A DNA stretch of 64,000 nucleotides from an uncultured Desulfobacteraceae bacterium (GTDB taxonomy: Bacteria; Desulfobacterota; Desulfobacteria; Desulfobacterales; 4572-123): contig CAYQNS010000002.1 of assembly GCA_964418755.1 (NCBI GenBank), forward strand, positions 10,561 to 74,560, written 5' to 3'. The translations under genes and the position numbers were made by a program. Position 1 is the stretch's first letter; every line of letters begins with the position of its first letter. Of the stretch, positions 17,059 to 64,000 are shown one piece after another. Under the pieces are notes generated by a model. It had not been told where the DNA came from. It was given only the letters and a program-made list of their open reading frames with translations, and did not search any database.

Positions 17059-17089
17059 ATCGTAGGGTGGGCTGTGCCCACCAATAGAC
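17059..17089. repeat. REP-like palindromic element atcgtagGGTGGGCtgtGCCCACCaatagac (copy 1)
   Basis: It has a 7-bp perfect palindrome core. A near-identical 32-nt copy lies at 39031-39062. It sits in the only large gap (136 nt) inside the dcw operon. Confidence 0.8.
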
Positions 17090-39030: not shown

Positions 39031-39062
39031 ATCGTAGGGTGGGCTGTGCCCACCAAATAGAC
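39031..39062. repeat. REP-like palindromic element atcgtagGGTGGGCtgtGCCCACCaaatagac (copy 2)
   Basis: It matches 17059-17089 apart from one extra A. It is flanked by short word-doubling repeats (acttgaaacttgaa; aggttaaaggttacaggtt). Confidence 0.8.
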
Positions 39063-48741: not shown

Positions 48742-50763
48742 ATGGAGGAAAGAATGGAAGCTGTATTAAATAATCTACCGTTGTATTGTGCGATGGTTGG
48801 TGTTGTGGGCGTAATTTTTGCCATAATACTCGCCGTTTCTGTCAAAAGTGCACCGGCCGGCGATGAAAAAATGCAGGAGATTGCCGGAGCTATTAAGGAA
48901 GGCGCCATTGCCTATCTGAACCGTCAGATGAAAAGCATGGGAATTGCCGGTGTTATTATATTTATTATTATTTTTGCCACGTTAGGTGCCACGACCGCCA
49001 TTGGTTTTCTGATTGGCGCAGTGGCGTCCTTTATAGCCGGCTACATTGGAATGCGGGTGTCCGTAATTGCCAATGTCAGGACGGCGGAAGCAGCCAAAAA
49101 GGGAATGGCTGCGGGCCTTGCAATGGCTTTCAAGGGCGGATCGGTCACCGGTATGATCGTTGCCGGTCTGGCACTGTCTTCAGTTGCCGGCTATTATGCG
49201 TTTACTCATGATGTGATAGCCCTTGTAGCCTTAGGGTTTGGCGGAAGCCTGATCTCCATATTTGCCAGGCTTGGCGGCGGTATCTTCACCAAGGGCGCCG
49301 ATGTGGGCGCTGACCTGGTGGGCAAGGTCGAGGCAGGAATCCCCGAGGATGATCCGCGCAACCCGGCTACCATTGCCGATAATGTCGGCGACAACGTGGG
49401 GGACTGCGCCGGAATGGCGGCCGACCTTTTCGAGACCTATGCAGTTACGGCTGTGGCTGCCATGCTCATCGGTCACCTGCTTTTCCCCGAGATTCCCATG
49501 GCAGTCGAATTTCCGCTGATGCTGGGCGCCATCTCCATTATCGCCTCCATTATTGCCGTATTTTTCGTACGGCTCGGCAAGAGCGAATATATCATGGGCG
49601 CCCTCTACAAGGGGATGTTCGGTGCCGCTATCATCGCGGGCGTTGCCTTTTATTATGCCTGCACCCGGTTCATGGGTGACCTGGGTGATATCAGTGCGAT
49701 GAATATCTATTACTGCACGCTGATCGGTCTGGTGCTGACCGTTGTAATTGTTATTATTACTGAATTTTACACGGGGATCTACAGCCCGGTAAAGAGCATC
49801 GCAGAAGCCTCCACCACCGGACACGGCACCAACATCATCGCCGGTCTGGCCGTTTCCATGCAGGCTACTGCAGCCCCGGTTCTGGCCATCTGCCTGGCCA
49901 TCTTTATGTCCTATAATTTTGCCGGCATCTATGGTCTTGCCATGGCCGCCATGTCCATGCTTTCCATGACCGGTATGGTGATTGCTATTGACGCCTACGG
50001 CCCCATCACCGACAATGCCGGCGGCATCGCCGAGATGGCCGGGATGGATGAGAGTGTCCGTGCCGTGACCGATCCTCTGGATGCGGTAGGCAACACCACC
50101 AAGGCCGTTACCAAGGGATACGCCATTGGATCAGCCGCTTTGGCCGCCCTGGTTCTTTTTGCCGCTTATGTGCAGGAATTCACAATCCACGGCGCCGAAG
50201 AGGGTATCAAATTCGATCTGGCCGATGTCAACGTTCTTATCGGTCTGTTTATCGGCGGACTGCTGCCCTACCTGTTTGCCTCCATTGCCATGAAGGCCGT
50301 TGGAAATGCAGGCGGCGCGGTTGTTGAAGAAGTGCGTCGTCAGTTCCGTGAAATCCCCGGAATCATGGAAGGAACCGCAAAACCCGATTACGGTGCATGT
50401 GTGGATATTGTCACCAAATTCGCCCTCAAGGAGATGCTGATGCCGGCACTGCTGCCTATTATTGCGCCTCTTCTGGTTGGTTTCCTGCTCGGCAAAGTCG
50501 CCCTGGGCGGTCTGTTGATCGGCTCCATTGTTACCGGCGTGTTTCTCGCGCTGTCCATGACCACCGGCGGCGCTGCCTGGGATAATGCGAAAAAATATAT
50601 TGAAGACGGTCACCTGGGTGGTAAAGGCAGCGAAGCTCACAAAGCTGCAGTTACCGGCGACACAGTCGGCGATCCTTATAAGGATACCGCAGGTCCGGCC
50701 ATTAACCCGATGATCAAAATTCTGAATGTTGTTGCACTGCTCATGGTTCCCTTTCTGCTGTAA
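48742..50763 (+). CDS. hppA: membrane-integral proton-translocating pyrophosphatase (K+-independent signature)
   Basis: The 673-aa polytopic protein has [19 protein letters not shown] and DNVGDNVGD motifs. It carries [10 protein letters not shown] (Lys/Thr variant). Confidence 0.95.
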
Positions 50764-50810
50764 AAAGGTACCTGCAGCAATCAGAATATGATTGCACTGT
50801 AAAAATAAAA

Positions 50811-50843
50811 AGGATTGGTGCTTTTTTGCACCAATCCTTTTTT
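50811..50843 (+). terminator. intrinsic terminator after hppA
   Basis: AGGATTGGTGC-tttttt-GCACCAATCCT forms a perfect 11-bp stem followed by TTTTT. Confidence 0.85.
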
Positions 50844-50924
50844 ATTGATTGTTATCGGCAGGTGTGGTATTATTCAGTACTCAATCGAAATCACTTCACA
50901 TATTTTTTTTACTATTGCCGTGAA

Positions 50925-51500
50925 ATGGGCCTCGAAATAACGGATAAAACAACAGGAGATAAATTGGAAACTCCAAAACCACAATCCCGGGAGTTTAAAG
51001 TCGGTGACCTGGCGGTTTATCCCGCCCATGGCGTAGGACGGATTGAATCTATCGAAAGCCGGATGGTAAACGGTGAGACTCATGACTTCTATATTATGAA
51101 AATTCTGGAAAACGGCATGGTGATCATGATTCCAACCTCCAATGTGGAATCTGTAGGATTGCGGAACGTAATCAAAAAAAAGGATATCCCAAAAATTTTT
51201 GCCGTCATTCAGGACAATCGTGACAATTTGATTGACAAGCAAACCTGGAACCGCCGTTACCGAGAATACATGGAAAAAATCAAAACCGGATCGCTTTACG
51301 AGGTGGCAGAGGTTTTCAGGGATCTTTATCTTTTGAAATACACAAAGGATCTGTCTTTTGGAGAACGCAAGCTGTTTGATACAGCCCAGATTCTGCTGGT
51401 AAAAGAACTTTCCACTGCCCGCGATGCAGATGAAAAATCAATTCTTGAAGAAATAATCGCACTATTTCCTGCTCCTCCAGAGGATGAAGAATCCGCCTGA
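50925..51500 (+). CDS. carD: CarD/CdnL-family RNA-polymerase-binding regulator
   Basis: FKVGDLAVYPAHGVGRIESIE matches the CarD_CdnL_TRCF domain. The start is uncertain because there is no clear SD, and the ORF-track start at 50826 overlaps the hppA terminator. Confidence 0.8.
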   Translation: MGLEITDKTTGDKLETPKPQSREFKVGDLAVYPAHGVGRIESIESRMVNGETHDFYIMKILENGMVIMIPTSNVESVGLRNVIKKKDIPKIFAVIQDNRDNLIDKQTWNRRYREYMEKIKTGSLYEVAEVFRDLYLLKYTKDLSFGERKLFDTAQILLVKELSTARDADEKSILEEIIALFPAPPEDEESA

Positions 51501-51509
51501 TCAGCAAAC

Positions 51510-52493
51510 ATGTCCGCAAAAAATGTTTTTACGATTATAGCAGATAAATTGGATTCAGGCGAGCGTCTTGATGTCACTGTAGCGCATCATGTTACGGATT
51601 GCTCCCGTTCACAAAGTGCCCGAGTGATCAAGATGGGAAATATAACGGTTCACGGTTTATCCAGAAAACCGGGCTACCGTGTGCTGGACGGCGATATCAT
51701 CCATATCTGTTTTCCACCTCCTTCTAAAATTTCCTGTGAACCGGAAGATATCCCCATCGAAATCCTGTATGAAGATGATCAGCTTATTGTGGTCAACAAG
51801 CAGCCGGGGATCGTTGTTCATCCGGCTCCGGGACATTATTCGGGAACGCTGGTGAACGGACTGCTGAATTATTGCCCTTTTCTGGAAGGCATCGGCGGGG
51901 AAATGCGGCCGGGGATCGTTCATCGGCTGGACAAGGATACATCCGGAGCTCTGGTTATAGCCAAAAATGACAAGGCCCATCAAAATCTTTCCGCACAATT
52001 CAAATCCCGGCAGGTGAAAAAAACCTATCTTGCACTGGTCCACGGTGAAATAAAAGATGAATCCGGAAAAATCGTGCTTTCCATCGGCCGCCACCCGGTT
52101 GACCGAAAGCGGATGTCTACCCATAGCCGTCACGCAAGGGAGGCCCGGACATTGTGGAAAGTGCGGGAGCGGTTCCCGGGTCTAACGCTCCTTGGAGTTG
52201 ATCTGAAGACCGGTCGGACCCACCAGATAAGGGTGCATTGCGCCGCCATGGGGCACTGTGTGGTCGGGGATGCGGTTTACTGCAGCCGCAGGAAAAATAA
52301 ATATGCGGGTATAAGCGGAACCGGGGAGACGTTGAAAAGTATTCAAAGTGTTTCACGGCAGATGCTTCACGCCCGACACCTGGGTTTTAACCACCCCGTC
52401 TCCAATCAATGGATGCATTTTGAAGCACCTGTTGCTCAGGATATGGCAAGGCTGCTGGCAGCATTGCGATCGGTCACCTCACACCTTTTTTGA
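51510..52493 (+). CDS. rluD: RluA-family 23S rRNA pseudouridine synthase (RluD-like)
   Basis: It has an N-terminal S4 domain and the catalytic motif HRLDKDTSG. Confidence 0.9.
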   Translation: MSAKNVFTIIADKLDSGERLDVTVAHHVTDCSRSQSARVIKMGNITVHGLSRKPGYRVLDGDIIHICFPPPSKISCEPEDIPIEILYEDDQLIVVNKQPGIVVHPAPGHYSGTLVNGLLNYCPFLEGIGGEMRPGIVHRLDKDTSGALVIAKNDKAHQNLSAQFKSRQVKKTYLALVHGEIKDESGKIVLSIGRHPVDRKRMSTHSRHAREARTLWKVRERFPGLTLLGVDLKTGRTHQIRVHCAAMGHCVVGDAVYCSRRKNKYAGISGTGETLKSIQSVSRQMLHARHLGFNHPVSNQWMHFEAPVAQDMARLLAALRSVTSHLF

Positions 52494-52548
52494 CATAGGC
52501 CGATTCCCGGCTTATTTTTCCGGCAGCACCCAAGCATAAGATTTTCAT
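52492..52548 (-). pseudogene. 19-codon N-terminal relic of a paralogue of the saccharopine-dehydrogenase-like gene at 59380..60549
   Basis: 52500-52548 matches 60501-60549 at 45 of 49 nt. It encodes MKILCLGAAGKISRES, the same as the full gene. Similarity continues weakly for 3 more codons and then stops at the rluD stop codon. Confidence 0.7.
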
Positions 52549-52593
52549 AAAATTTATCATCCTATGTATTACAAAATTTATCGCTAAATTTTA

Positions 52594-52622
52594 TTGACAT
52601 CAAACCGCGGATAGTCTAAATA
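52594..52622 (+). promoter_or_regulatory. near-consensus sigma70-type promoter TTGACA-N17-TAAATA
   Basis: TTGACA lies at 52594-52599 and TAAATA at 52617-52622, with exactly 17 nt between them. It points toward the 21-codon ORF. Confidence 0.45.
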
Positions 52623-52767
52623 CGCGTCTTTAAAAATAGTTTGGCTGCATAGAAAAAATCGGTGAAATTGAAGAAAAAATATTTTGATCCGGCGGGAAAA
52701 CGATACCCGTTAAAGGCAAAATCGTTGTCTACCGCCGGAGATTTAAAAAAAATGGAGGTAAATTAAT

Positions 52768-52833
52768 ATGAGACTTATTGATATTCTGGTTGACGCATTG
52801 GTCGACACTCTGAACAGCATTTTCAAGGCATGA
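52768..52833 (+). CDS. candidate micro-ORF (21 aa, MRLIDILVDALVDTLNSIFKA)
   Basis: GGAGGT lies 8 nt upstream of the ATG. It has its own promoter about 145 nt upstream and a stem CCGGCGG...CCGCCGG in the leader. It is followed by hairpins. The peptide looks like an amphipathic helix. Confidence 0.35.
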   Translation: MRLIDILVDALVDTLNSIFKA

Positions 52834-52858
52834 CCCGAAGCTGTTTCGGCTTGAAGAA

Positions 52859-52891
52859 GGAATCGGCGGGCAAAGCAAGCCTGCCGATTCC
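52859..52891 (-). terminator. strong hairpin between the convergent micro-ORF and the ABC ATPase gene (likely operon terminator)
   Basis: GGAATCGGCgGGC-aaagcaa-GCCtGCCGATTCC forms a 13-bp stem with one mismatch. On the minus strand it is followed by UUCUUC. Confidence 0.55.
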
Positions 52892-52927
52892 ATCCCATAA
52901 GGTTGGCCGCCTATCTCAATTTTATTT

Positions 52928-54022
52928 TTACTTTTTCTTTTTTTTTAGCGCGTGTACGGTGCGCGGCACGGTAATTTTGACTTCATCGTTTTTTCTGAAC
53001 TGCTGTGAACCGGCTGGATTGTACTGGTCCACGACCATTTCCTTATCTCCGAATTTGACCGTATATTTTGCAAGATTGCCCGCGTACATACGGCTGAGTA
53101 TCATGCCGTGAAACGTATTGGTACGCTGAGTACCTTTTGATGGTGAAAGAGATACGGTTTCAGGCCGGATCACGAGCACCACGGCATCCCCCTTTTCAAG
53201 CGGTTCCCGGCCGCGGTCCAGTTTGATATCACCATACTCGGTAGTCACGTGACAGGTGTTTTCCTCCATCGATGCTACCCGGCCTTCCAGGAAATTAACA
53301 TACCCAACGAACCCGGCAATAAATTCATTGGCCGGCTGATCGTAAATATCTATGGGAGACCCGATCTGTTGAATGACACCGTCACTGAGTACCAGGATGC
53401 GATCAGAAATACTCATGGCTTCATACTGGTCGTGGGTCACAAATATGGTGGTGACGCCGATTCTCTCCTGAATATTGCGGATTTCTTCACGCATAACCAC
53501 TCGCAGATTGGCATCCAGATTGGATAACGGCTCGTCAAGCAAAAGAACTTTAGGTTCTAATGCCAGTGCCCTGGCAAGAGCGACCCGTTGCTGCTGGCCG
53601 CCGCTGATCCGGTCGATGGTGCGTTCGCCAAAGCCTTCCATGAAAACCAGGGAAAGGAGTTCCTCCACACGGGTATCGATTTTTTTCTTGGGCCATTTTT
53701 GAAGCTTAAGACCAAATCCGATATTTTTTGCCACGGTCATATGGGGAAAAAGCGCATAACTTTGAAAAACCATTTTTGTATCCCGCATGTTCGGCGGCAA
53801 TCCGCTGATATCTTCGCCGTCTAAAATCACGCCTCCGGAAGTCAGTTCGGTAAAACCGCCGATAATTCTTAGCAGCGTTGTCTTTCCGCATCCGCTTGGA
53901 CCTACAAATGTCAGCAATTCGCCTTTTTTTACCTCTGCTGAAATACCCTTGAGTACTTCCACATCACCAAAATTTTTATAAATATCCTCCAGTGCCAACA
54001 TCGGTTTTTCCTGCGAATTCAT
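52928..54022 (-). CDS. ABC transporter ATP-binding protein (PotA/FbpC-type with C-terminal TOBE-like domain)
   Basis: It has a Walker A (GPSGCGKTT), the signature ISGGQQQRVALARAL and a Walker B (LLLDEPLS). It ends in a Lys run. Confidence 0.9.
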   Translation of the reverse strand: MNSQEKPMLALEDIYKNFGDVEVLKGISAEVKKGELLTFVGPSGCGKTTLLRIIGGFTELTSGGVILDGEDISGLPPNMRDTKMVFQSYALFPHMTVAKNIGFGLKLQKWPKKKIDTRVEELLSLVFMEGFGERTIDRISGGQQQRVALARALALEPKVLLLDEPLSNLDANLRVVMREEIRNIQERIGVTTIFVTHDQYEAMSISDRILVLSDGVIQQIGSPIDIYDQPANEFIAGFVGYVNFLEGRVASMEENTCHVTTEYGDIKLDRGREPLEKGDAVVLVIRPETVSLSPSKGTQRTNTFHGMILSRMYAGNLAKYTVKFGDKEMVVDQYNPAGSQQFRKNDEVKITVPRTVHALKKKKK

Positions 54023-54025
54023 TTA

Positions 54026-55714
54026 TTATGCTCCTTGCTTTTTAGTAACATCGAGTCCGGTTTTTTTGGCAATCAGTTTCAGGATAGCCATGCAAAGCCC
54101 CACGATGAAAATCATTTTGACCGTTGTTGCCGATGCCAGTCCCAGTTCGCCAAGCTGGGCCGTCAGATAAATATATACCGAGGCCAGATCAAATCCGGGG
54201 GTGACCAGAAAAATGACCGAACTTAGAGACATCATGGTCGTCATGAAAGTATAGAGAAAACCCGCTACAAAGGCGGAAAACATGATGGGCAGTATGATCT
54301 TGAAAAATATGGTTAAAAAATCGGCACCCAGATCAGCGGAGGCCTCTTCAATTTCAATGCTGATCTGGTGCAGTTTGCTGATGCCTGCCTCAACACCCAC
54401 GGCTACAAATCGAAACACACAATTTAGAATAATAATCCAAATGGTCCCGGTCAAGAGAAATGGGGAGCGGTTGAATGCTATGATATAGCCAACTCCGATA
54501 ACCGTACCGGGAAGGGCAAAGCCGGAAAGGGCTATCATCTCCATGATATGCCTGCCGGGAAACTTTCCGCGCATAATCACATAAGCCAGCAGTGTCCCGA
54601 CAATTGCGCCGAACAAACCGGAAACCAGAGAAATCTTGATACTGTTCCAGATTGCCTCATTGGCCTGAGTATTCAAAATATGTTCTATTACAAACGTATT
54701 GTCCACTCCTATAATCTTTACAAAAGCTCCCAGCAAAATAACCCCGAAGCTTAAAAGAATCATCACGCCGACAGTAAAAGTAATTATCATAAAGGGAATT
54801 TTGATTCCAAGGATCATCTCTTTATATTCAACAGCGGTAGGTTTCCCGACAATCGTGGTGTACCCTCTTCCCTTTAGCACATAGTTATGGAGAATAAAGA
54901 TAATCACACAGGGCGTAATCAGGATAACGGAAAGTACACTCGCCATATTGAAGTCACCTTCACCTGTGATCATAAGATAAGTGTCCGGTGCCAGAAAAGG
55001 AGTCCTGCCACCCAGTATTGCGGGATTGCCAAATTCAGCAATTGCCATCACAAATACAAGCAGGGCAGCTTTCAGGAGGCCTGGAGCTGCCAGAGGAATG
55101 GTTATCGACCGGATAATTCTGTATTCAGAAGCCCCCATGTCACTGGCTGTCTCTTCCAGGCTGGGGTTTAATGAATTCAGAACGTTTTCAATCATCATGA
55201 AGGACAGGGGAAGGAAAGCCAGACACTGGGCCGCAATAACCCCGGTCCAGCTATAAATGTTAAAATTAAGATTAAACAGATTGTTAATTAATCCGTTTCT
55301 GCCAAACAGAGTGATCAGTGAAATGGCAAAAATATAAGGCGGGGCCGCCAAAGGCAGGAGTGCAATGATTTTAAGCGGTTTTCTAATCCACAAAGGCCCC
55401 CGTGTGGTCATATAGGCAAAACAGAAGCCAACGACCAGCAAAATTACCATAACGCTGGTTCCCAGAATTAGAGTGTTAAGTAGAGACCAGTAGTAAAAAT
55501 TATAACTGAAAAACTCTACATAATACTCTAATGTAAAACCATTTTCGCCCCAAAAACTTTTAACCAGGACCATCGCAATCGGATAGAGGAGGAAGATGGC
55601 AAGAAGGGTAAAAAGAGCACCGGCAAAAATATTGATCAGTCTTTTGCTGAAAAATACTCTGAGTTTATACAAAAAACTTCTATGATAAATACTTTCCACT
55701 ACCGCTTCCGCCAT
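54026..55714 (-). CDS. ABC transporter permease, fused double-domain (FbpB/ThiP-type)
   Basis: The 562-aa product has about 12 TM helices arranged as two tandem permease modules. Confidence 0.88.
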   Translation of the reverse strand: MAEAVVESIYHRSFLYKLRVFFSKRLINIFAGALFTLLAIFLLYPIAMVLVKSFWGENGFTLEYYVEFFSYNFYYWSLLNTLILGTSVMVILLVVGFCFAYMTTRGPLWIRKPLKIIALLPLAAPPYIFAISLITLFGRNGLINNLFNLNFNIYSWTGVIAAQCLAFLPLSFMMIENVLNSLNPSLEETASDMGASEYRIIRSITIPLAAPGLLKAALLVFVMAIAEFGNPAILGGRTPFLAPDTYLMITGEGDFNMASVLSVILITPCVIIFILHNYVLKGRGYTTIVGKPTAVEYKEMILGIKIPFMIITFTVGVMILLSFGVILLGAFVKIIGVDNTFVIEHILNTQANEAIWNSIKISLVSGLFGAIVGTLLAYVIMRGKFPGRHIMEMIALSGFALPGTVIGVGYIIAFNRSPFLLTGTIWIIILNCVFRFVAVGVEAGISKLHQISIEIEEASADLGADFLTIFFKIILPIMFSAFVAGFLYTFMTTMMSLSSVIFLVTPGFDLASVYIYLTAQLGELGLASATTVKMIFIVGLCMAILKLIAKKTGLDVTKKQGA

Positions 55715-55753
55715 CAGTCATTCCTCCTGTCTCCAGTTAATAGTTGACAGTTT

Positions 55754-56821
55754 TTATTGTTTTTTTGCCGCTTCTGCTGCCTTTTTTTCTTTTTCGTCAC
55801 CGACTTTCTTAGCTTTTGGGGTTTCTTTCATCATAAACTTGCTTTTCCATGTCTTGATGATTTTTGCCCGGTTTTTAACCGCCCATTTATGGTCAAGATC
55901 AATGTAGGTTGGCTTTGCAGCACCGTAAAGAGCACTTGCGATGCCCGGGCGTGGGGGAAAGTATCCAAACGATGCCAGAAATTCGCTGAATTCCCTGGTA
56001 CCAAAATAATCCATGACTTTTTTACACAGTTCAAGCTTTTTGGTGTCCTTTAAAATGACCGTATAGTTACCCTCGTATCCGATACCCTCTGCAGGGATTA
56101 CCCATTGGAGGGGATAGCCATCATTAATCCTCTTAAGCACGTTTTCGTCCGCTGTGATTCCCAAGAGGTATTCGCCTCTCCCCACCAGGTCGGTCGGAGC
56201 ATTCCCACTCTTGGTATAAAAGGCCATGTTCTCATCAAGAGCTTTTAGGTACTCCCACCCTTCATCCCAACCGTAAAGCTGGAGAAACGAATAATTGAGC
56301 ATAAAAGCCGTACCGGAAGTCCTGGGTGAAGGGGCGACAATCTGTCCTTTCCACTTGGGGTCCAAAAGGTCCTTCCAGGACATGGGCATGCCATATCCTT
56401 TTTCGGCCAGTTTCTTTTTGTTGCCTACCAGAACAAATGAGAAGGTTCCGAGGGCGTACCAGCAGCCATCAGGATCTTTGAACACCGGATCTATATCTGC
56501 CCATGAAGGCGCCATAAAGCATTCGTAAAATCCCTTTTTTTTTCCCTCGATAGCCTGGGCCGCACCATACGAAATAACCATGTCGGCATTGAAGTTTGGC
56601 GCTTCAGTCTTAACTCTGGCCCAACATTCACCCCAGGAAAGGGTGATGTGCTTGACTTCTATCCCGAGCTTCTCTTCCACCTGCTTAGCGATGCCCTCAT
56701 TCACCTCCCTGGAATATCCCATGTAGGCGCTGATCGAGTCCTTGGCCTGGAGGCCACTAGAAGCAAAACCGAATGTTAAAACCAAGGCCAGTGCTGTAAT
56801 AATTAGACATTTACTTTTCAT
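55754..56821 (-). CDS. ABC transporter periplasmic substrate-binding protein (Fe3+/polyamine/thiamine-type family 1 SBP) with Lys-rich C-terminal tail
   Basis: The start was trimmed to ATG 56821, which has GGAGGTG 5 nt upstream. It has a signal peptide (MKSKCLIITALALVLTFGFASSGLQA) and an SBP fold pattern. Confidence 0.85.
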   Translation of the reverse strand: MKSKCLIITALALVLTFGFASSGLQAKDSISAYMGYSREVNEGIAKQVEEKLGIEVKHITLSWGECWARVKTEAPNFNADMVISYGAAQAIEGKKKGFYECFMAPSWADIDPVFKDPDGCWYALGTFSFVLVGNKKKLAEKGYGMPMSWKDLLDPKWKGQIVAPSPRTSGTAFMLNYSFLQLYGWDEGWEYLKALDENMAFYTKSGNAPTDLVGRGEYLLGITADENVLKRINDGYPLQWVIPAEGIGYEGNYTVILKDTKKLELCKKVMDYFGTREFSEFLASFGYFPPRPGIASALYGAAKPTYIDLDHKWAVKNRAKIIKTWKSKFMMKETPKAKKVGDEKEKKAAEAAKKQ

Positions 56822-58126
56822 CGTACACCTCCGCGTTTTAAGGTCTTTGAATGGATAAGTAACCATGACCCAAATAGCCATGCCTTCGTATGAAAAAGTT
56901 CACCTGAAAAGTACCTTTTCACCTCCTTTCCTTAAAAAATGTATGCCTACGGTTAATCTTAAGAATTCCTCGATGCTCTGCATCGGGGTTGAAAAGATAA
57001 AAATTCATCTTGATACATCGCAGCCCTGCTGCGGGGTAGTTCATTTTTTTACGAAATAAGCAGACACATAATTTTTATATCAAATGACGCTTAAAAAATC
57101 CGGTGGGAAACTTAGAACCAAATTCGATTCATGGATAAATGCCTATTAATATCTTAAAGGGCTTTATTTACAAACAGTTACAATAGCTTTATAAAATAGC
57201 AAGATTAATTCTAATAAATTTTAACACTTTAAAGTGAGTTTTTAAAGCGCCATACGTCATATAAATATATATAAGTTGGTGTTGAATGCCGAACGTTATA
57301 AACTTCGGATGGTAACCATCTTAATTTGATTTTATTATAATTTTTGATGGTAATTTTTATATTGCTAAGACGTTTAAAAGCAAAGCTAAAATTGATGTTA
57401 AATGATTTAATAAAAAAATGTCAACTATAAGTCAAATTAATAATAATTATAATTCTGATAACAATAAGTTATTATTGGGTGACTACAGACCTCGTGAAAA
57501 ATGGCCTTTTAAAGCATGATTTTTTTGGGCACTCACCTTTTTTAAGCGGCGACCGGCCAACTTCAATATGTAGCATTTTCCCGATCGGAATATAGCTTAA
57601 CGCATTCAGCTTTTTACAAAGCTGTTCCTGCGTTTTTCGACGACTCGGTTGCTGCAGTGGTTCCAATCAGACAACTACCCTATCTACTTCAGATTTGATC
57701 CATCTTTGTTGAAGACTTCTTTTGCTTTTGAATTTTTTTATAAGCGAAAACAGACCAATTATGCAAATAATGTCAATTAAATCACAAAGTCATGTTGCAA
57801 AAAGAAAAAACGACTTTTTTCCTACCTGCATGTAAAAATACAGTCTTGATATTTTTTAAATAATTGAAAAAACAATGTTTTTGTTTAGTGCCAAGGGGCT
57901 ATATCAGGGATTCTGAAATCTGTCCTCATTGATAAGAGGATAAATCTTTTACCTGTAGATTTAGACCAAGTCATCAGCAGGCAATATGCCTGAATATGCT
58001 TGGGAATACCGCATTAGGTTCAAATAAAAATAATTAGGGACTTGTTTTTCTAAACATCAATTTTCCGCTAAAAATGAAAATTATTAGAAATAACAAACTA
58101 TTAATTATATTATGAAAAAAACGATG

Positions 58127-59179
58127 TCAAGCAATAATATCGCTATACAGGGAGTATCTCCCATATTTTTTAACCGCCTCAATCATGGCCAGGAAATTTT
58201 CGGATTTTACACCGGAATGTATGCTGTTGCTGGAAGAAAGAATATGACCACCCCCTGGAGATGCCGACTTTATGCACATTCTCACCGCTTTGATCACCTG
58301 TTCGGGAGTACCGTTGGTCAAAAGATCCCCGCAATCGATATTGCCGATGATACAGACCCTGTTCCCATACATTTTCTTGATTTTTTGAATGTCCATCCCT
58401 GCAATAGGATCAATTGGATTGATTCCGTCAATCCCTGTTGCGATGATCATATCCAAAATCTTCATGAGATTGCCATCGCTATGCTTTATGCAAAAGGCCC
58501 CCATTTCATGGACAAGGGTTACCATTTTTTTCAACCCCGGAAGAACGAATTTTCTAAAATGTTTTGGGGAAATCATCGGGCCTTGATTATATGCGTAATC
58601 ATCCCCTAACATCACTATCTCAGCCCCGGCTTTAATGGCTTTTTTAACAACTTCCATTTCATAACTGAAGGCCATTTCTGTGATTTCATGCGCAAATTTC
58701 GGATTTTCTATATAATCGAGGAAAAGATTTTCTGTTCCTCTGAGATACCGCGGGTTACTCATGACGTCACGGTTTTCCCATATAATTGCCTTTTCCCCTT
58801 TGAATCTTTGAACGAGATCAGGGAAAGGACCAAGAACATCAGGGTCTTCTGGGTCTGGAGGAGTATATGATTTTAGATCCTTTTCGGAGTCGATGATCCC
58901 TTCGATGGGATATGCGATGGCTTCCCCGGTGTACACACGGGTTACCCCCCATTTATCTTGGAATTTATAGCCCGGTTGAACATCTCTCTGGTGACCCGAC
59001 AATGTATGCTCATATCCCAAACTGACGGCATCCATTCCGATTTTATCTAAAAAATCAAAGTATGAGCATCCCGGATGGATAGCATCAATTACTTTTGAAT
59101 CGATAGACCATTCCAGCATTGGAACTCGATCGGGTTCTTTTCTTTCTAAAGCGGCAAAAATACGTTGTCGCGAATTCAT
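58127..59179 (-). CDS. uroporphyrinogen-decarboxylase (URO-D/MtaA/CmuA) family protein
   Basis: ATG 59179 has AAGGAGG 5 nt upstream. It reads R.....L.R.EPDRVPM...GDDYA...ISP..F..F..P and is about 350 aa. Confidence 0.85.
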   Translation of the reverse strand: MNSRQRIFAALERKEPDRVPMLEWSIDSKVIDAIHPGCSYFDFLDKIGMDAVSLGYEHTLSGHQRDVQPGYKFQDKWGVTRVYTGEAIAYPIEGIIDSEKDLKSYTPPDPEDPDVLGPFPDLVQRFKGEKAIIWENRDVMSNPRYLRGTENLFLDYIENPKFAHEITEMAFSYEMEVVKKAIKAGAEIVMLGDDYAYNQGPMISPKHFRKFVLPGLKKMVTLVHEMGAFCIKHSDGNLMKILDMIIATGIDGINPIDPIAGMDIQKIKKMYGNRVCIIGNIDCGDLLTNGTPEQVIKAVRMCIKSASPGGGHILSSSNSIHSGVKSENFLAMIEAVKKYGRYSLYSDIIA

Positions 59180-59379
59180 GTCAGCCTCCTTTAACCTTAA
59201 TTCCATTTTTTTGAAAAATCACCTTTTTTTATTGACGATGCATTATCATCACGGTGAAATCGAGAAGAACCGGGCCGGGCTGTCTGCCCTGGGAGTGTTA
59301 AAAAACATTCAGATGAGCAGTAATGGGTTATTCCATCCCGGCATAAACTCAACACGATTATTAATAGAAAGTTCAGGCC

Positions 59380-60549
59380 TCATGAGAAGGGAATCTCCTC
59401 GACTTTTTCATGTACTATGATACCTCGTCTGGAAAGCTCGGTGAATACCGCTGATGGTTCAAAAGCCAGTTCAGGGGCGATCACACCGGACCCGTGAACT
59501 CGGCCACTGTCGATCATCTGGGCACCGATACTCATGGGGATGCCCACACAGCGTGTATAGGCACGCAGCTTTTCCCATCCTTTGACCGAGCCGTCCGAGG
59601 CTGGATGAGTGTGAGTGAGGAGATGTCGGTATCTTTTCCCCTCCCGGCTGCCGGTGACCTCAACGTGCAGCGCATATCCGTAAAGATCGGTGGTTTGCCC
59701 CTCTTGGGACTGCAGAAGATAGTCTGCAACGGCATCCAGTATTCCTACCTGTACGCCGTCTACTTCGATTCTGTCGTTACGCATGAAACCCCAGTCATAA
59801 AGAGTGCGAATAAGCGCCATGTTTTCAAGCGGCCAGGTACCGCGTACTTCGATCAGTTGTATCTGTTTGTCAGCCAGCGATTTTGGAAGGGTCATGGTTT
59901 CAGCATGGGGAATGATGTACTGGACATGGGTTCCAAAAGGCGGCGGCAGTTCGATTTCCATAGGGCGGGCAAAGGGCGGTACCTGGATAAATTTCCCATT
60001 TTCATAAACCACGCGGGAGGGCAGATCAGGATCGTACTCCATGCGTGTGGTTTCGGCAATTGCCGGTGAAAAAGCCACCGGTCGGAATGCACCGTGGCTG
60101 ATACGGATTGTGTCCACCGTCTCCAACTGGTCGGCAGCATGCCTGGTCATCATATTCGTAATCCCGGGGGTCATCCCCATGCCCGGAATACAGATTTTCC
60201 CGTTGTCTGAAAATTCTCGATCAAATTCCCATTCGGCACCACAGCCGTTGAGGTTGATACCATGTACACCGGCTTCGGCGATGCAGGCGGTTGAGCGGTC
60301 GTTGAGAGAAATGGTGGTGCCGTCCATAGCCAAATCATAGCCTTTGATAGTGGCCACCGCTGACTGACGATCATTGACATCGATTTTTACAAAATCCACC
60401 CGGGGGTCGTCAAGCCACTTTACCACCTCCAGCCCTGCATTTTCATTATAGTCGGCGATAGTAATTTTTTCAAAATCCGAATACTCCACGAGATCATAAA
60501 CCGATTCCCGGCTTATTTTACCGGCGGCACCCAAACACAAGATTTTCAT
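59380..60549 (-). CDS. saccharopine dehydrogenase-like NAD(P)-binding oxidoreductase
   Basis: It has an N-terminal Rossmann motif (MKILCLGAAGKISR) and is 389 aa. The two-domain layout is typical of the Sacchrp_dh family. Confidence 0.8.
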   Translation of the reverse strand: MKILCLGAAGKISRESVYDLVEYSDFEKITIADYNENAGLEVVKWLDDPRVDFVKIDVNDRQSAVATIKGYDLAMDGTTISLNDRSTACIAEAGVHGINLNGCGAEWEFDREFSDNGKICIPGMGMTPGITNMMTRHAADQLETVDTIRISHGAFRPVAFSPAIAETTRMEYDPDLPSRVVYENGKFIQVPPFARPMEIELPPPFGTHVQYIIPHAETMTLPKSLADKQIQLIEVRGTWPLENMALIRTLYDWGFMRNDRIEVDGVQVGILDAVADYLLQSQEGQTTDLYGYALHVEVTGSREGKRYRHLLTHTHPASDGSVKGWEKLRAYTRCVGIPMSIGAQMIDSGRVHGSGVIAPELAFEPSAVFTELSRRGIIVHEKVEEIPFS

Positions 60550-60581
60550 TTGGCCTTCCTTTCAATCCGAGGTATAATTAT

Positions 60582-60593
60582 ATGTATATACAT
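60582..60593. promoter_or_regulatory. candidate GntR/HutC operator: perfect palindrome ATGTATATACAT
   Basis: It lies 33 nt upstream of the start of the saccharopine-dehydrogenase-like gene. It shares the 9-mer TGTATATAC with the site at 60761-60769. Confidence 0.4.
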
Positions 60594-60757
60594 GAATGAT
60601 GTGTAGCAACCCTAAATTGTCATGTCAATAAATAATTTTTAAACGATATGTTTATACCACCCATTTGACTATAATTATTTGAATAACTAGCAAATATTAA
60701 AATTTAATAAATTCTAATAAAATATTAACGAGCACACTTGTCAAATAAAGTGGTTGA

Positions 60758-60784
60758 CTTTGTATATACCGTTACTATACAAAG
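60758..60784. promoter_or_regulatory. inverted repeat CTTTGTATA-N9-TATACAAAG overlapping the putative gntR promoter
   Basis: TTGACT (60754-60759) and TATACA (60776-60781) are separated by 16 nt. The repeat arms overlap both the -35 and -10 hexamers and contain TGTATATAC. Confidence 0.4.
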
Positions 60785-60878
60785 AGTAGAGTTGTCCTAT
60801 TAGGATCGGAAAAGACAAAGTTTATCTATGAACCGGACAAATTTAGAAAAAACAGGCAGTGCGAAAGGAGTAAATGGA

Positions 60879-61634
60879 ATGGGCTTGAATTATCGCAGAA
60901 AAATTCCTAAATATTTACAGATCCATCAGTACTTGCGCAACATGATCGACCGTGGGGAAATTAAACGCGGCGATAAGCTCCCCATCGAGACCGAGCTGTC
61001 CAGTATGTTCGCGGTCAACCGCATGACGGTGCGTAAAGCGATGAATTTATTGGTAGCCGACAAAATGGTAATCCGCCAACCGGGCAAAGGGACTTTCCTG
61101 ATCTCCGAAAAATCTAATAATTTAATCTATAACCTGAAAAATATCACCAGTTTTGTTGATGACATGAAAAGCTCCGGATTTAATCCTACATATCAAACGA
61201 TTGATGTGAAAGTGGTTCAGGCGGACGACGAAGTAAGCAAATTGCTAAAATTGAAAAATGACCAACGAACCATTTACTCTTTACGGGTGTTGCATGCCAA
61301 TGATGAACCGGTACTTATCGAGAAAAGCTATCTTCCCTATTTAAAATTCAAAGATATCCTGGATATGGATTTTAATACTACCCTTTATCAAATTCTCACG
61401 GAAAAGTTTGATATCACGCTGGATTATGCTACCCAGTGTTTGACGGCGGAGCTATCCGGAGAGGAAGATACCGGAATGTTCAAACTGGCCCAGCCCATCC
61501 CCTGTATGAAGATGGAATCCGTACTGTACGATTCGGGCAACTCTCCGGTGGAGGCCCTTTTCGCCTGCTATCGTGGTAGTAAGTACAAATTCAGATTCAA
61601 GGCAGGGCGCTATATTCGTCATTCGATCCTGTAG
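60879..61634 (+). CDS. GntR-family transcriptional regulator, HutC subfamily (wHTH + UTRA)
   Basis: ATG 60879 has AAAGGAG 8 nt upstream. It reads Y.QI...L...I..G....GDKLP.E.ELS..F.V.R.TVRKA...L and has a UTRA-like C-terminal half. Confidence 0.85.
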   Translation: MGLNYRRKIPKYLQIHQYLRNMIDRGEIKRGDKLPIETELSSMFAVNRMTVRKAMNLLVADKMVIRQPGKGTFLISEKSNNLIYNLKNITSFVDDMKSSGFNPTYQTIDVKVVQADDEVSKLLKLKNDQRTIYSLRVLHANDEPVLIEKSYLPYLKFKDILDMDFNTTLYQILTEKFDITLDYATQCLTAELSGEEDTGMFKLAQPIPCMKMESVLYDSGNSPVEALFACYRGSKYKFRFKAGRYIRHSIL

Positions 61635-61948
61635 CCCGACTATCCTGGCAGTTAAAAATCATTTTTGCCTAACTCAGGATGTCGAAATTGTATATAATTG
61701 TTTTAATACACCAAATTCTCAATTTAAAGAATTCCATATCTCTGAAACCGTATGCTTGCCCTTTGAACATTTTGATTTTATTGTCTGTCCCTCTAAATAT
61801 CCTATTGAATAGGATAATCGTAGTAGTTGAGAATATCGAGAATATGTTCATGAATGGTTGTGGACTGAGGGTTATTTTTGACGTGATGCAAAAAATCTGG
61901 TAGAAACCGGACGCATGAAAAATATGATTCTTTATTGCAGGGGGCAGG

Positions 61949-63031
61949 ATGCTGAAAGGACACGGCGGTGATATTTATGAACTGGCCCGGGAGTTAAACT
62001 GCCGGACAGACACAATTATAGACATGAGCAGTAATGTCAATCCACTGGGTCCCATGCCGGAGATGATGGATTTTCTCCGGGACCGGATTGGAGACATCAC
62101 CCGGCTGCCGGAGGTGAATGCCAAAGGGATTATCAACCTGTTTGCCGGGGCACTGGGCGTTGATCCTGAACTTGTGATGACGGCCAACGGCAGCACCTGG
62201 TTTATCCATACGATTCCATTGGCCCTGAAAACAAGACGGGCATTGATTATCGGCCCGACCTATTCGGATTATGCTGCCGGATGCCGGATGCACAATGTTG
62301 AGCACAGATTCTGGTTCAGCCGGACAGATAACGATTTTCAGCCAGTGATACAGGAGATTGACAAAGCCCTGCGGGGCTTTGACACCGTATTTATATGCAA
62401 CCCCAACAACCCCGCTGGCGCGCTGATACCCCATGGCGATATCCTTGATCTGTGCATACGTCATCCTGGGGTGGTGTTTGTTGTGGACGAGGCCTATTTG
62501 CCCTTTGTCGCCGGCGGTGCCGAATCCAGCGTAGCCGGGTGCGGTCTTCTAAATGTGGTTGTGTTGAATTCAATGTCGAAAATATTTCGAATTCCCGGGC
62601 TCAGGATCGGTTTTATGGTCTCATCCGCCCCGGTGATTCAAAAAATGGCCCGATATGCATTGCCGTGGTGTGTAAGCATTCTGGCCCATGCGGCTGTTGC
62701 CTGGGTGCTGACCAATCCTGCAACAACGGATGAATTTGTTGAAAAAACAGTGCGATTTGTCACGGCCCAGAGAACCGTTGTAGCAGAAGGCCTTGAACCC
62801 GTGGCAGATCTGACGGTATTTCCCGGCAGTGCGAATTTTATACTGGTGCGGCTTCCAGAAGGGATTTCTGCAGAAACGGTTTGCGCTGCCCTGGCGGCAG
62901 ACAGAATACTGATTCGAAACTGCGCCAATTTTAAAGGCCTTTCCAACCGGTTTGTCCGGATTTCGCTGAAAACAGAGGATGTCAACCGAAAACTGATCCG
63001 AAAATTGTCGGATATCTGTAATAATATCTAA
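61949..63031 (+). CDS. cobD: L-threonine-O-3-phosphate decarboxylase-type aminotransferase (CobD/CobC family)
   Basis: It has an HGGDIY N-terminus, SSNVNPLGP, and the PLP-Lys context NSMSKIFRIPGLRIG. Distinguishing it from HisC-type enzymes needs a search. Confidence 0.7.
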   Translation: MLKGHGGDIYELARELNCRTDTIIDMSSNVNPLGPMPEMMDFLRDRIGDITRLPEVNAKGIINLFAGALGVDPELVMTANGSTWFIHTIPLALKTRRALIIGPTYSDYAAGCRMHNVEHRFWFSRTDNDFQPVIQEIDKALRGFDTVFICNPNNPAGALIPHGDILDLCIRHPGVVFVVDEAYLPFVAGGAESSVAGCGLLNVVVLNSMSKIFRIPGLRIGFMVSSAPVIQKMARYALPWCVSILAHAAVAWVLTNPATTDEFVEKTVRFVTAQRTVVAEGLEPVADLTVFPGSANFILVRLPEGISAETVCAALAADRILIRNCANFKGLSNRFVRISLKTEDVNRKLIRKLSDICNNI

Positions 63032-63295
63032 AGAATGAAGTTTCATGATTTGCTGTATTTTCCTTGACAAATATAATCGATAAATTATATCTTATTTTTT
63101 CAAAATCGAATGCCATAATTCAATGGTTCCATTGTTTTTGTTTCTCTGATTTTCAAAAGTTTCTGAAAATATTGATAGCAGAATTATCACAATATATTTC
63201 ATATGTGCCGTTTTTTTAATCTTTGTTCCTACTGCTGTATAATTTTACTTATCACGTGATCATCAATGCCAACATCTAAAAAAGGAGGACGTTTT

Positions 63296-64000
63296 ATGAA
63301 AAAGTTTGGTGTATTATTCGTTTCGATAGTTGTTGTGTCTGTGTTTTTGGCCGGGCCGGTCATGGCCAAAGACAAAGTAGTTATTTATACTTCTCTGGAA
63401 AATGAAGAAGTGGTGGAATACATTGCGCAGGCTAAAGTGGAGTTGCCGGATCTCGATATTCAGGCGATTCGACTTTCCACCGGAGAACTGGGCGCCAGAA
63501 TGCTGGCTGAAAAAAACAACCCCCAGGCGGATTGTGTCTGGGGCTGGGCCGTCACCAACATGGAGGAATTCGTCCCCAAAAATATGATAAAACCATACAA
63601 ACCGACAGGATGGGACAAGATTCCGGCTCATTTTAAAGACCCCAATGGATACTGGACCGCCATCGATTTATATGCAGCAGCCTTTGTGATCAATACAAAG
63701 GTAATGGAGAAGAAAAACCTCCCTATGCCCAAGGGATGGAACGATCTGCTGAATCCAGCCTATAAAGATATGCTGATCATGCCCAACCCTGCCAGTTCCG
63801 GTACCGGATTCCTGCAGGTCGCCAGTCTGCTGGAGATGCTGGATCCGGATTACAAAACCAAACCGATTGAAGACAACAAAGCCTGGGATTTTTTAAAGAA
63901 ACTCGATAAAAATATGGGCCAGTACATCAAAAGCGGTTCCAAACCGGCCAAGCTGACGGCAGCTGGTGAATACGCCATCGGCTGTTCCTTTGCCTTTGTA
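63296..64000 (+). CDS. ABC transporter substrate-binding protein (Fe3+/2-aminoethylphosphonate-type family), 3' end beyond window
   Basis: It is not in the ORF track because no stop lies within the window. AAAGGAGGA lies 6 nt upstream of ATG 63296. It has a signal peptide (MKKFGVLFVSIVVVSVFLAGPVMA), then KVVIYTS...STGEL..R...E...P.ADV.W. Confidence 0.8.
   Translation, partial: MKKFGVLFVSIVVVSVFLAGPVMAKDKVVIYTSLENEEVVEYIAQAKVELPDLDIQAIRLSTGELGARMLAEKNNPQADCVWGWAVTNMEEFVPKNMIKPYKPTGWDKIPAHFKDPNGYWTAIDLYAAAFVINTKVMEKKNLPMPKGWNDLLNPAYKDMLIMPNPASSGTGFLQVASLLEMLDPDYKTKPIEDNKAWDFLKKLDKNMGQYIKSGSKPAKLTAAGEYAIGCSFAFV

Follow-up and report, generated by a model that had tools for sequence, protein, structure and literature searches.

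The window analyzed here is a 64,000-nucleotide (nt) stretch of contig CAYQNS010000002.1 (positions 10,561 to 74,560; GenBank assembly GCA_964418755.1) from an uncultured Desulfobacteraceae bacterium. Directly behind an RluD-like pseudouridine synthase gene (rluD) it carries 55 nt that match the 5′ end of a saccharopine-dehydrogenase-like gene, which lies intact 8 kb further on; we refer to these 55 nt as the stump and to the intact gene as the resident gene. The stump is a fragment (pseudogene) of a saccharopine-dehydrogenase-family gene, being homologous to such a gene and having lost both its reading frame and its domains. Consisting of 55 nt alone, it falls short of a functional second copy, which would have a full-length frame and both domains. 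The stump is likely a non-functional fragment of a distinct allele that once worked. Four congeners (G001-G004) were searched for comparison, in three of which (G001, G003 and G004) the stump site is assembled.

The stump and its setting

The features on which the argument depends are as follows.

52494..52548, minus strand: the stump, codons 1-18 and the first base of codon 19 of a saccharopine-dehydrogenase-like gene
52474..52548, minus strand: 24-codon open frame made by the stump, translated as MKILCLGAAGKISRESAYVKKGVR and then a stop
52542..52548, no strand: right junction of the stump, TTTTCAT against native TTTTTAT in G001 and G004, a 6/7 microhomology
51510..52493, plus strand: RluA-family (RluD-like) pseudouridine synthase gene with PF00849 and an S4 domain, its stop one base before the stump
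60495..60549, minus strand: 5′ end of the resident gene that matches the stump, the start reading MKILCLGAAGKISRESVYDL
59380..60549, minus strand: intact saccharopine-dehydrogenase-like (resident) gene, 389 amino acids (aa), with PF03435 (E 6.8e-13) and PF16653 (E 1.5e-15)

The stump and the 5′ end of the resident gene (52494-52548 and 60495-60549) form a gap-free direct match of 49/55 nt (89%) at a spacing of 8001 nt, the longest among the 11 direct-repeat families of the window (family D3). Within a core of 49 nt (52500-52548 and 60501-60549) the copies differ at four positions, and each of these mismatches (TTA/TTG, TGC/TGT, GCT/GCC and GGA/GGT) is silent; beyond the core, codon 17 holds two further mismatches, reading GCC (Ala) in the stump and GTT (Val) in the resident gene. 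The longest identical run common to both copies is 19 nt. The match is not due to chance, since a search of the whole 4.6-Mb genome with 52440-52780 hit nothing but the query and the start of the resident gene (E 1.3e-13). A preliminary description of this DNA had reported the 45/49 direct repeat, with its four silent mismatches, next to rluD; this was borne out, and the match is now widened to 55 nt. The same description saw a further likeness on the 5′ side of the stump, in the word tgtattaca, which proved to be at chance level: in the 300 nt upstream of both ATGs the best common word was 11 nt long and on the opposite strand (E 0.017), and tgtattaca sits in sequence that is conserved in congeners lacking the stump (GGTATTACA in G001 and G004). 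Over ~190 nt past codon 19, stump and resident gene showed no similarity beyond word matches of 7-11 nt. Since the flanks share only such short words, the homology is limited to the 55 nt.

The resident protein matches PF03435 from residue 3 and no NCBIfam model at its cut-off. The stump resembles the N-terminal NAD(P)-binding segment of that domain in coding for residues 1-18 of such a protein, among them the glycine-rich LGAAGK turn, presumably a Rossmann-type motif; unlike it, the stump holds just 18 of the ~120 domain residues and alone cannot fold or bind a cofactor. The last 20 bases of the 24-codon frame are antisense to the end of rluD. Upstream of the frame only a weak GGATGA is found, in a region that is native and has no ATG at that place in G001 and G004. 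The RluD-like protein scored 281.8 bits with TIGR00005 (cut-off 192.7), while the RluD equivalog model stayed below its cut-off. Upstream of the stump, the plus strand carries an H+-pyrophosphatase gene, a CarD-family gene and the RluD-like gene itself.

Both G001 and G004 are collinear with the window at 76% identity up to 56776, beginning inside the CarD gene (at 51153 in G001 and 51113 in G004), and collinearity returns at ~63050 with 83% identity. At the stump itself, homology to these two genomes is lost after the rluD stop and is back at 52542; the position is taken up by an unrelated spacer of ~54 nt in G001 and ~40 nt in G004, as counted from the alignment. The idea that this spacer is an old, decayed stump was rejected, the agreement seen by eye at ~16/45 positions being taken as chance. 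In G003, rluD is common at 85% up to 52491 and is then followed by an OEP/HlyD/AcrB efflux operon (outer-membrane factor, membrane-fusion protein and AcrB-type pump). G002 is fragmentary at this locus, its rluD contig ending at 52002 and its orthologue of the downstream ABC transporter operon not being assembled. Given the 76% collinearity in G001 and G004, the intergenic region and the ABC operon are native beside rluD, and the stump is a lineage-specific addition at a rearranging site, since that site holds a spacer in G001 and G004 and an efflux operon in G003. By these alignments, the spot just past rluD has been rearranged more than once in the genus.

At the right junction the gene homology, which extends to 52548, and the native homology, which starts at 52542, overlap by seven bases; at the left junction microhomology amounts to 2 nt or less. 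The non-native stretch between them, 52494-52541, is gene sequence throughout.

Relationship of the stump to other alleles

At E ≤ 1e-40, relatives of the resident protein were found in three of 41 genomes, the source genome (G000) included, the others being G002 (89% aa identity) and G003 (33%). The G002-type gene also occurs on metagenome contig L047 and on an X8 contig. Full-length comparison of the resident and G002-type genes gives 87.1% identity, a synonymous distance (dS) of 0.50 and a non-synonymous distance (dN) of 0.058, and the 87.1% agrees with the 87-89% seen for rluD, the aminotransferase gene and the second binding-protein gene.

At the gene start, the stump differs from the resident gene at 6/55 positions and from the G002-type gene at 6/53 (47/53 identical), and the latter two differ from each other at 8/53. 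The stump thus forms a third branch, the shortest, with ~2 changes where the others have 4 each. Through residue 18, Ala-17 included, it encodes the same peptide as the G002-type gene. By the Nei-Gojobori method, codons 2-18 hold 5 synonymous and 1 non-synonymous differences between stump and resident gene, and 6 and 0, respectively, between stump and G002-type gene; the single non-synonymous difference falls in the resident gene, where the stump agrees with the G002-type. The stump shows 0 changes at ~39 non-synonymous sites and 5-6 at ~12 synonymous sites, and the former count bounds its time as dead DNA at ~0.08 substitutions per site.

Several null models were set against this pattern. Codons 1-16 allow 144 single-base changes, of which only 32 are silent; four silent out of four under random placement has P 0.0024-0.006. 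If the stump drifted while its partner remained coding, the four core differences have P 0.015-0.023, and at least 5/6 silent differences from the resident gene P 0.022-0.036; for 6/6 silent differences from the G002-type gene, P is 0.0018-0.0035. Neutral sequence, moreover, would be expected to carry more changes than the stump branch does (star tree, P 0.011; resident gene as sole partner, P 0.036). These tests are not independent and draw on 6-10 substitutions and one outgroup lineage, for which reason we regard the statistical support as moderate. They all point the same way, however, and at that strength suggest that the stump spent most of its separate history within a working gene under purifying selection. 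The preliminary description had proposed as source a separately evolving paralogue or xenologue under such selection, and the equal distance of the stump from the resident and G002-type genes, Ala-17 and the tests (P 0.002-0.04, depending on the null) uphold it over a recent copy of the neighboring gene.

There is no other close copy in the genome, the next best match having 27% aa identity, and the copy that gave rise to the stump must therefore have been lost or have been foreign. When the genome and metagenome collections were scanned for a 28-letter pattern covering the stump, resident and G002 versions, only the G002 contig and L047 were found, with one locus each, both of the G002 type; the scans yielded no full-length allele of the stump type. 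Nor did the repeat turn up as part of an unrelated conserved element, an option raised in the preliminary description, for the exact-pattern scans gave the G002-type gene start alone.

The dehydrogenase-like gene lies in different surroundings elsewhere in the genus. On the G002, L047 and X8 contigs, homology runs from 60547, the third base of the start codon, to 59300, ~80 nt past the stop, and the flanks are the end of a multicopy element on one side and the ffh/rimM/trmD region on the other. The start codon of the G002-type gene reads ACG (the first two bases of ATG differ) and stands directly against the element end. A search for this element gave 10 hits in G002, of which several fall at contig ends; G000, G001, G003 and G004 gave none. 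In the source genome, the ffh/rimM/trmD region lies on another contig (C74) and is without a dehydrogenase-like gene. Since the flanks of the G002-type gene differ and homology begins at the start codon, the gene has evidently moved within the genus, its start having, by a further coincidence, served twice as a breakpoint. The orthologue was seen to abut the element end in three places (L047 1-125, the start of G002 contig C273, and X8 record 30). The next in-frame start of the G002-type gene is a TTG at codon 6, and it is possible that the gene is inactive there or that the element drives it; downstream of it lie ThiI-like, RlmN, Ffh, RimM and TrmD genes. A diverged copy of the element in G002 contig C128 lies between LysM/SLT and DUF4442 genes, with no transposase nearby.

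Routes by which the stump may have arisen

The anatomy of the stump, its absence from the congeners and the pattern of differences are observations, and the order and number of events are our inference. The source was likely a third allele with a past as a functional gene, belonging either to a former second copy of this lineage or to a congener, and both junctions of the stump are illegitimate. In a first step, a larger piece carrying the whole second copy may have been inserted just past rluD, at the spot that was also rearranged in G003; in a second, the insert, by then redundant with the resident copy, may have been reduced by deletion to 55 nt. We put this two-step path forward tentatively as the likeliest one, and the combination of path and separate allele falls somewhat short of an even chance. 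It has in its favor that deletion is a common origin of gene remnants and that a local paralogue would explain the closeness of 8 kb. Like other gene remnants left by deletion, the stump is recognizable as part of a gene but truncated, lacks both a complete domain and its own promoter, runs early into a stop, and lies at an intergenic site prone to rearrangement. Unlike them, it is just 55 nt long, has novel junctions at both ends and begins exactly at the start codon; nor, in all likelihood, does it derive from the resident copy, and it bears the signature of a separately selected allele.

A number of points weigh against the two-step path. Two new junctions demand at least two events, yet no other foreign base is left, and the path makes it a coincidence that a junction falls at the very ATG. 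A whole second copy beside rluD was found in none of the four congeners searched, the region of G002 not being assembled. If the source was foreign, the closeness of 8 kb becomes a coincidence (~16 kb of 4.6 Mb, by our arithmetic); if it was a paralogue, two copies must have coexisted for long (synonymous distance ~0.6). The small number of substitutions and the single outgroup lineage noted above count here as well.

A single event is a possible but doubtful alternative. In the short-patch type of illegitimate recombination termed SPDIR, single strands of intra- or extragenomic origin anneal at microhomologies and cause substitutions of 3 to ~100 bp, according to an excerpt of bioRxiv 10.1101/2023.11.22.568220. 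Applied to the stump, a single strand of a diverged functional allele, foreign or since lost, would have annealed past rluD and left both junctions at once. The size is as that excerpt would have it (3 to ~100 bp, there citing Harms et al. 2016): 48 nt (52494-52541) to 55 nt (52494-52548) replace a native spacer of similar length (~40 nt in G004, ~54 nt in G001). The non-native stretch, moreover, is all gene sequence with no extra bases, and the right junction shows the 6/7 microhomology. So far as the excerpted account goes, the stump resembles SPDIR products in that a short ectopic stretch stands for a native one of similar length, with apparently extended microhomology at one junction and a donor that may be intragenomic or foreign; it differs in being a fixed state of wild metagenome populations, in having best donor candidates that are 89% identical, where an identical donor would be expected, and in a second junction with almost no microhomology (2 nt or less). 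The donor differs from the resident gene at 6/55 positions, hence it must be foreign or now lost, and a random foreign fragment is improbable within 8 kb of its homologue (~0.4%, by our arithmetic). The crossover sites are putative. In the excerpted text of the same preprint (bioRxiv 10.1101/2023.11.22.568220), SPDIR is measured solely in Acinetobacter baylyi, where it is very rare, at ~1e-13 per cell and locus.

It is improbable that the stump is merely an old copy of its present neighbor that drifted, with no second functional copy ever having existed and with all differences due to synonymous change in the resident gene and to a few silent-type changes that the stump happened to gain. This would be the simplest history and would account for the closeness of 8 kb; in addition, the outgroup places three of the six differing bases on the resident branch (the third base of codon 4 and both of codon 17), so that just 1 to 3 changes need fall on the stump. 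However, had the stump been neutral while the resident gene gained 4 changes at ~17 free sites, ~12 changes would be expected in it, mostly of the amino-acid-changing type, and only ~2 are seen, none of that type. The tests above speak the same way (P 0.036 against the intact gene and 0.011 on the star tree; 0.02-0.04 for at least 5/6 silent; 0.002-0.004 for 6/6 against the G002-type). Furthermore, the gene of another species is just as close to the stump as the resident gene is.

That the 55 nt were kept for a function is very improbable. A role might be sought in a terminator hairpin for rluD, a promoter element for a small ORF (open reading frame), the 24-residue peptide or an antisense RNA. 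The region between the stump and the small ORF, and the ORF itself, are as follows.

52549..52767, plus strand: native intergenic region with a TTGACA box at 52594-52599, conserved in G001 and G004
52768..52833, plus strand: 21-codon small ORF (MRLIDILVDALVDTLNSIFKA) preceded by GGAGG, with the counterpart MKLVDFVVGALVDTLNSLFK in G001 and G004

The intergenic region has ~77% identity to G001 and G004 over its first 163 nt. The small ORF and its counterpart show many third-position differences; the TTGACA box lies ~170 nt upstream of it, a strong hairpin follows at ~52859-52891 (z -3.1), and the ORF is convergent with the ABC operon. No Rfam family was found for 52300-53000 (E up to 1) or for 50000-64000 (gathering scores), and no tRNA.

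The few changes on the stump's own branch would suit a function. Directly past the rluD stop, the plus strand also has an 8-bp hairpin (52495-52515) followed by TTTTT (U5 in the RNA), as a terminator would, but it folds no better than shuffled sequence (z -0.73), and a promoter and terminator consensus scan of 52300-53000 gave 0 terminator sites. That scan did show one promoter-like site, TTGACA-17-TATTTT at 52490-52518 on the plus strand, with 10/12 matches to consensus, a chance-level result given that shuffles have 1.2 ± 1.2 sites; it is created by the join of rluD and stump and points toward the small ORF. A plus-strand RNA would form a duplex with the mRNA of the resident gene over the 55 nt at -92 kcal/mol, compared with -28 ± 4 for shuffles, a value that is expected since the stump is homologous to the start of that gene. 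Slighter still is the chance that the stump, as part of the 3′ untranslated region of rluD, might act as a trans-antisense regulator of the dehydrogenase-like mRNA, coupled to read-through from rluD. On that equally faint supposition, it would pair with the start codon and the first 18 codons, and selection for pairing would explain why it changed so little. Against any function stand its absence from the three congeners with the site assembled (of the four searched), the weak ribosome-binding site of the peptide, and the record of the 11 public runs that contain the stretch, none of which is entered as RNA. The stump lacks its own promoter, its ribosome-binding site is weak and its frame ends at 24 codons; it appears to be inert, and there is no indication of a role.

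The DNA between the repeats, the assembly and the meaning of the stump

Two larger features occupy the DNA between the repeats and beyond.

52928..56881, minus strand: ABC transporter operon (ATPase, fused permease and binding protein, by Pfam domains)
56777..63053, no strand: variable block, in whose place G001 and G004 have ~1.35 kb that includes a HAD hydrolase gene

Within the variable block lie a non-coding stretch of 1.25 kb with low GC content, an MtaA/CmuA-like URO-D gene and the resident gene and, beyond the latter on the plus strand, a GntR/HutC-type regulator gene and a CobD/HisC-like aminotransferase gene.

The preliminary description took the repeats to bracket a lower-GC segment with the ABC and URO-D genes, and hence to be the scar of an insertion or replacement, that is, Campbell-type ends of an incoming segment, able to mediate its excision. 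There is next to no likelihood of this. The repeats are indeed direct and 8001 nt apart, and 56.8-59.2 kb has a lower GC content and carries repeat debris. However, over half of the bracketed DNA (52542-56776) is native at its place beside rluD and collinear in G001 and G004, both of which are without the repeats; the ends of the indel (56777 and 63053) do not coincide with them; the five large ORFs between them (ABC components, URO-D-like and dehydrogenase-like) have no recombinase domain; and their longest identical run is 19 nt. The ABC genes, too, are unremarkable, with a GC content at third codon positions (GC3) of 0.48-0.52 as compared with 0.551 ± 0.048 for the window's 35 ORFs of 300 aa or more. 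Clearly low values were found for the URO-D-like gene (GC3 0.431) and for the non-coding stretch 56882-58126 (GC 0.315), and because these two alone are clearly low, the DNA bracketed by the repeats is not the lower-GC segment. The reading as an insertion scar is thus contradicted by synteny. Like the repeats that flank att- or Campbell-type integrations, these are two direct copies 8 kb apart, one of them within the 5′ end of a gene; unlike them, they enclose DNA that is largely native in the congeners, with five large ORFs and no recombinase domain, and are 89% identical, with differences older than any plausible single integration.

Excision between the repeats looks unlikely; it would take out the ABC operon and the URO-D-like gene together with most of the resident gene, its body. 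Efficient RecA-dependent exchange in Escherichia coli needs ~20-30 identical bases. Since the copies are 89% identical and share no run above 19 nt, the pair is a poor substrate, and recombination between the copies should be rare. No deletion joint from 52548 to 60550 was found among the contigs listed from four runs over 51500-61500; contigs drop rare variants and are uninformative on rare excision.

Other parts of the variable block and of the window have repeats of their own. The 1.25-kb non-coding stretch, which separates the binding-protein gene from the URO-D-like gene, has no long ORF and carries fragments of dispersed repeats: 56953-57046 matches at least seven G002 contigs (the best four at 85-93%), 57408-57473 matches contig C63 of G000 as well as G001, G003 and G004, and 57484-57535 matches several G002 contigs. 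It looks like mobile-element debris at the left edge of the block. Between the GntR and aminotransferase genes, ~125 nt (61712-61834) have five copies in G004 and one in G001, all at 82%, with no tRNA and no Rfam match, and are probably the end or a remnant of a mobile element. The aminotransferase gene (61919-63007) has an 83% match in G004 contig C2 at ~1.386 Mb, the rluD locus being at 0.468 Mb; since this match is so distant, the variable block is built from parts that lie elsewhere in congeners. Outside the block, an exact 26-nt direct repeat with a palindromic core (17059-17084 and 39031-39056, 22 kb apart) could be a REP-like element.

The source genome is a metagenome assembly of 448 contigs with an estimated 95.8% completeness and 5.2% contamination. 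The stretch 52250-52850 is present in 11 public runs, of which 10 are labelled salt lake and one marine. Contigs from four runs other than the possible source run were aligned to 51500-61500, and those from three of the four cross the rluD end, the stump and the intergenic region with 0-1 differences:

X2 record 2, 52300-52804: 0 differences, covers both stump junctions
X3 record 10, 52283-53030: 0 differences, covers both stump junctions
X4 record 17, 52323-52743: 1 difference, covers both stump junctions

A 55-nt length is a common assembler word length, and the 448 contigs and estimated contamination might suggest a chimeric join, but such an artefact can be dismissed, because independent contigs of three other samples cross both junctions and the copies differ at 6 bases with no identical run above 19 nt, which a word-graph assembler could not have merged. 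Two further contigs, X4 record 24 (60095-60556), which lies over the 5′ end of the resident gene with 4 differences, and X8 record 26 (51891-52607), in which an rluD-like gene of ~85.5% identity is joined to the intergenic region with ~255 bases between, could carry stump-type bases or another form of the locus. Two joints in X8 (52947-to-59138, side 22, and 52297-to-52566, side 42) were set aside as stemming from other organisms or repeats.

No effect of the stump on the cell is evident, and its value is that of a record. For annotation it advises caution: direct repeats 8 kb apart resemble the boundaries of an island, yet synteny shows the DNA between them to be native. If the single-event reading were true, the stump would be a natural and fixed example of short-patch illegitimate recombination, a process documented in laboratory Acinetobacter baylyi, with reports from other organisms being scarce according to the excerpt of bioRxiv 10.1101/2023.11.22.568220. 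The spot past rluD, for its part, is a site of repeated rearrangement in the genus. Taken as a whole, features of this kind are ordinary; this one is unusually informative for so short a sequence, in that 55 bases suffice to reveal a past encounter of this lineage with a second, functional allele of a rare dehydrogenase-like gene.

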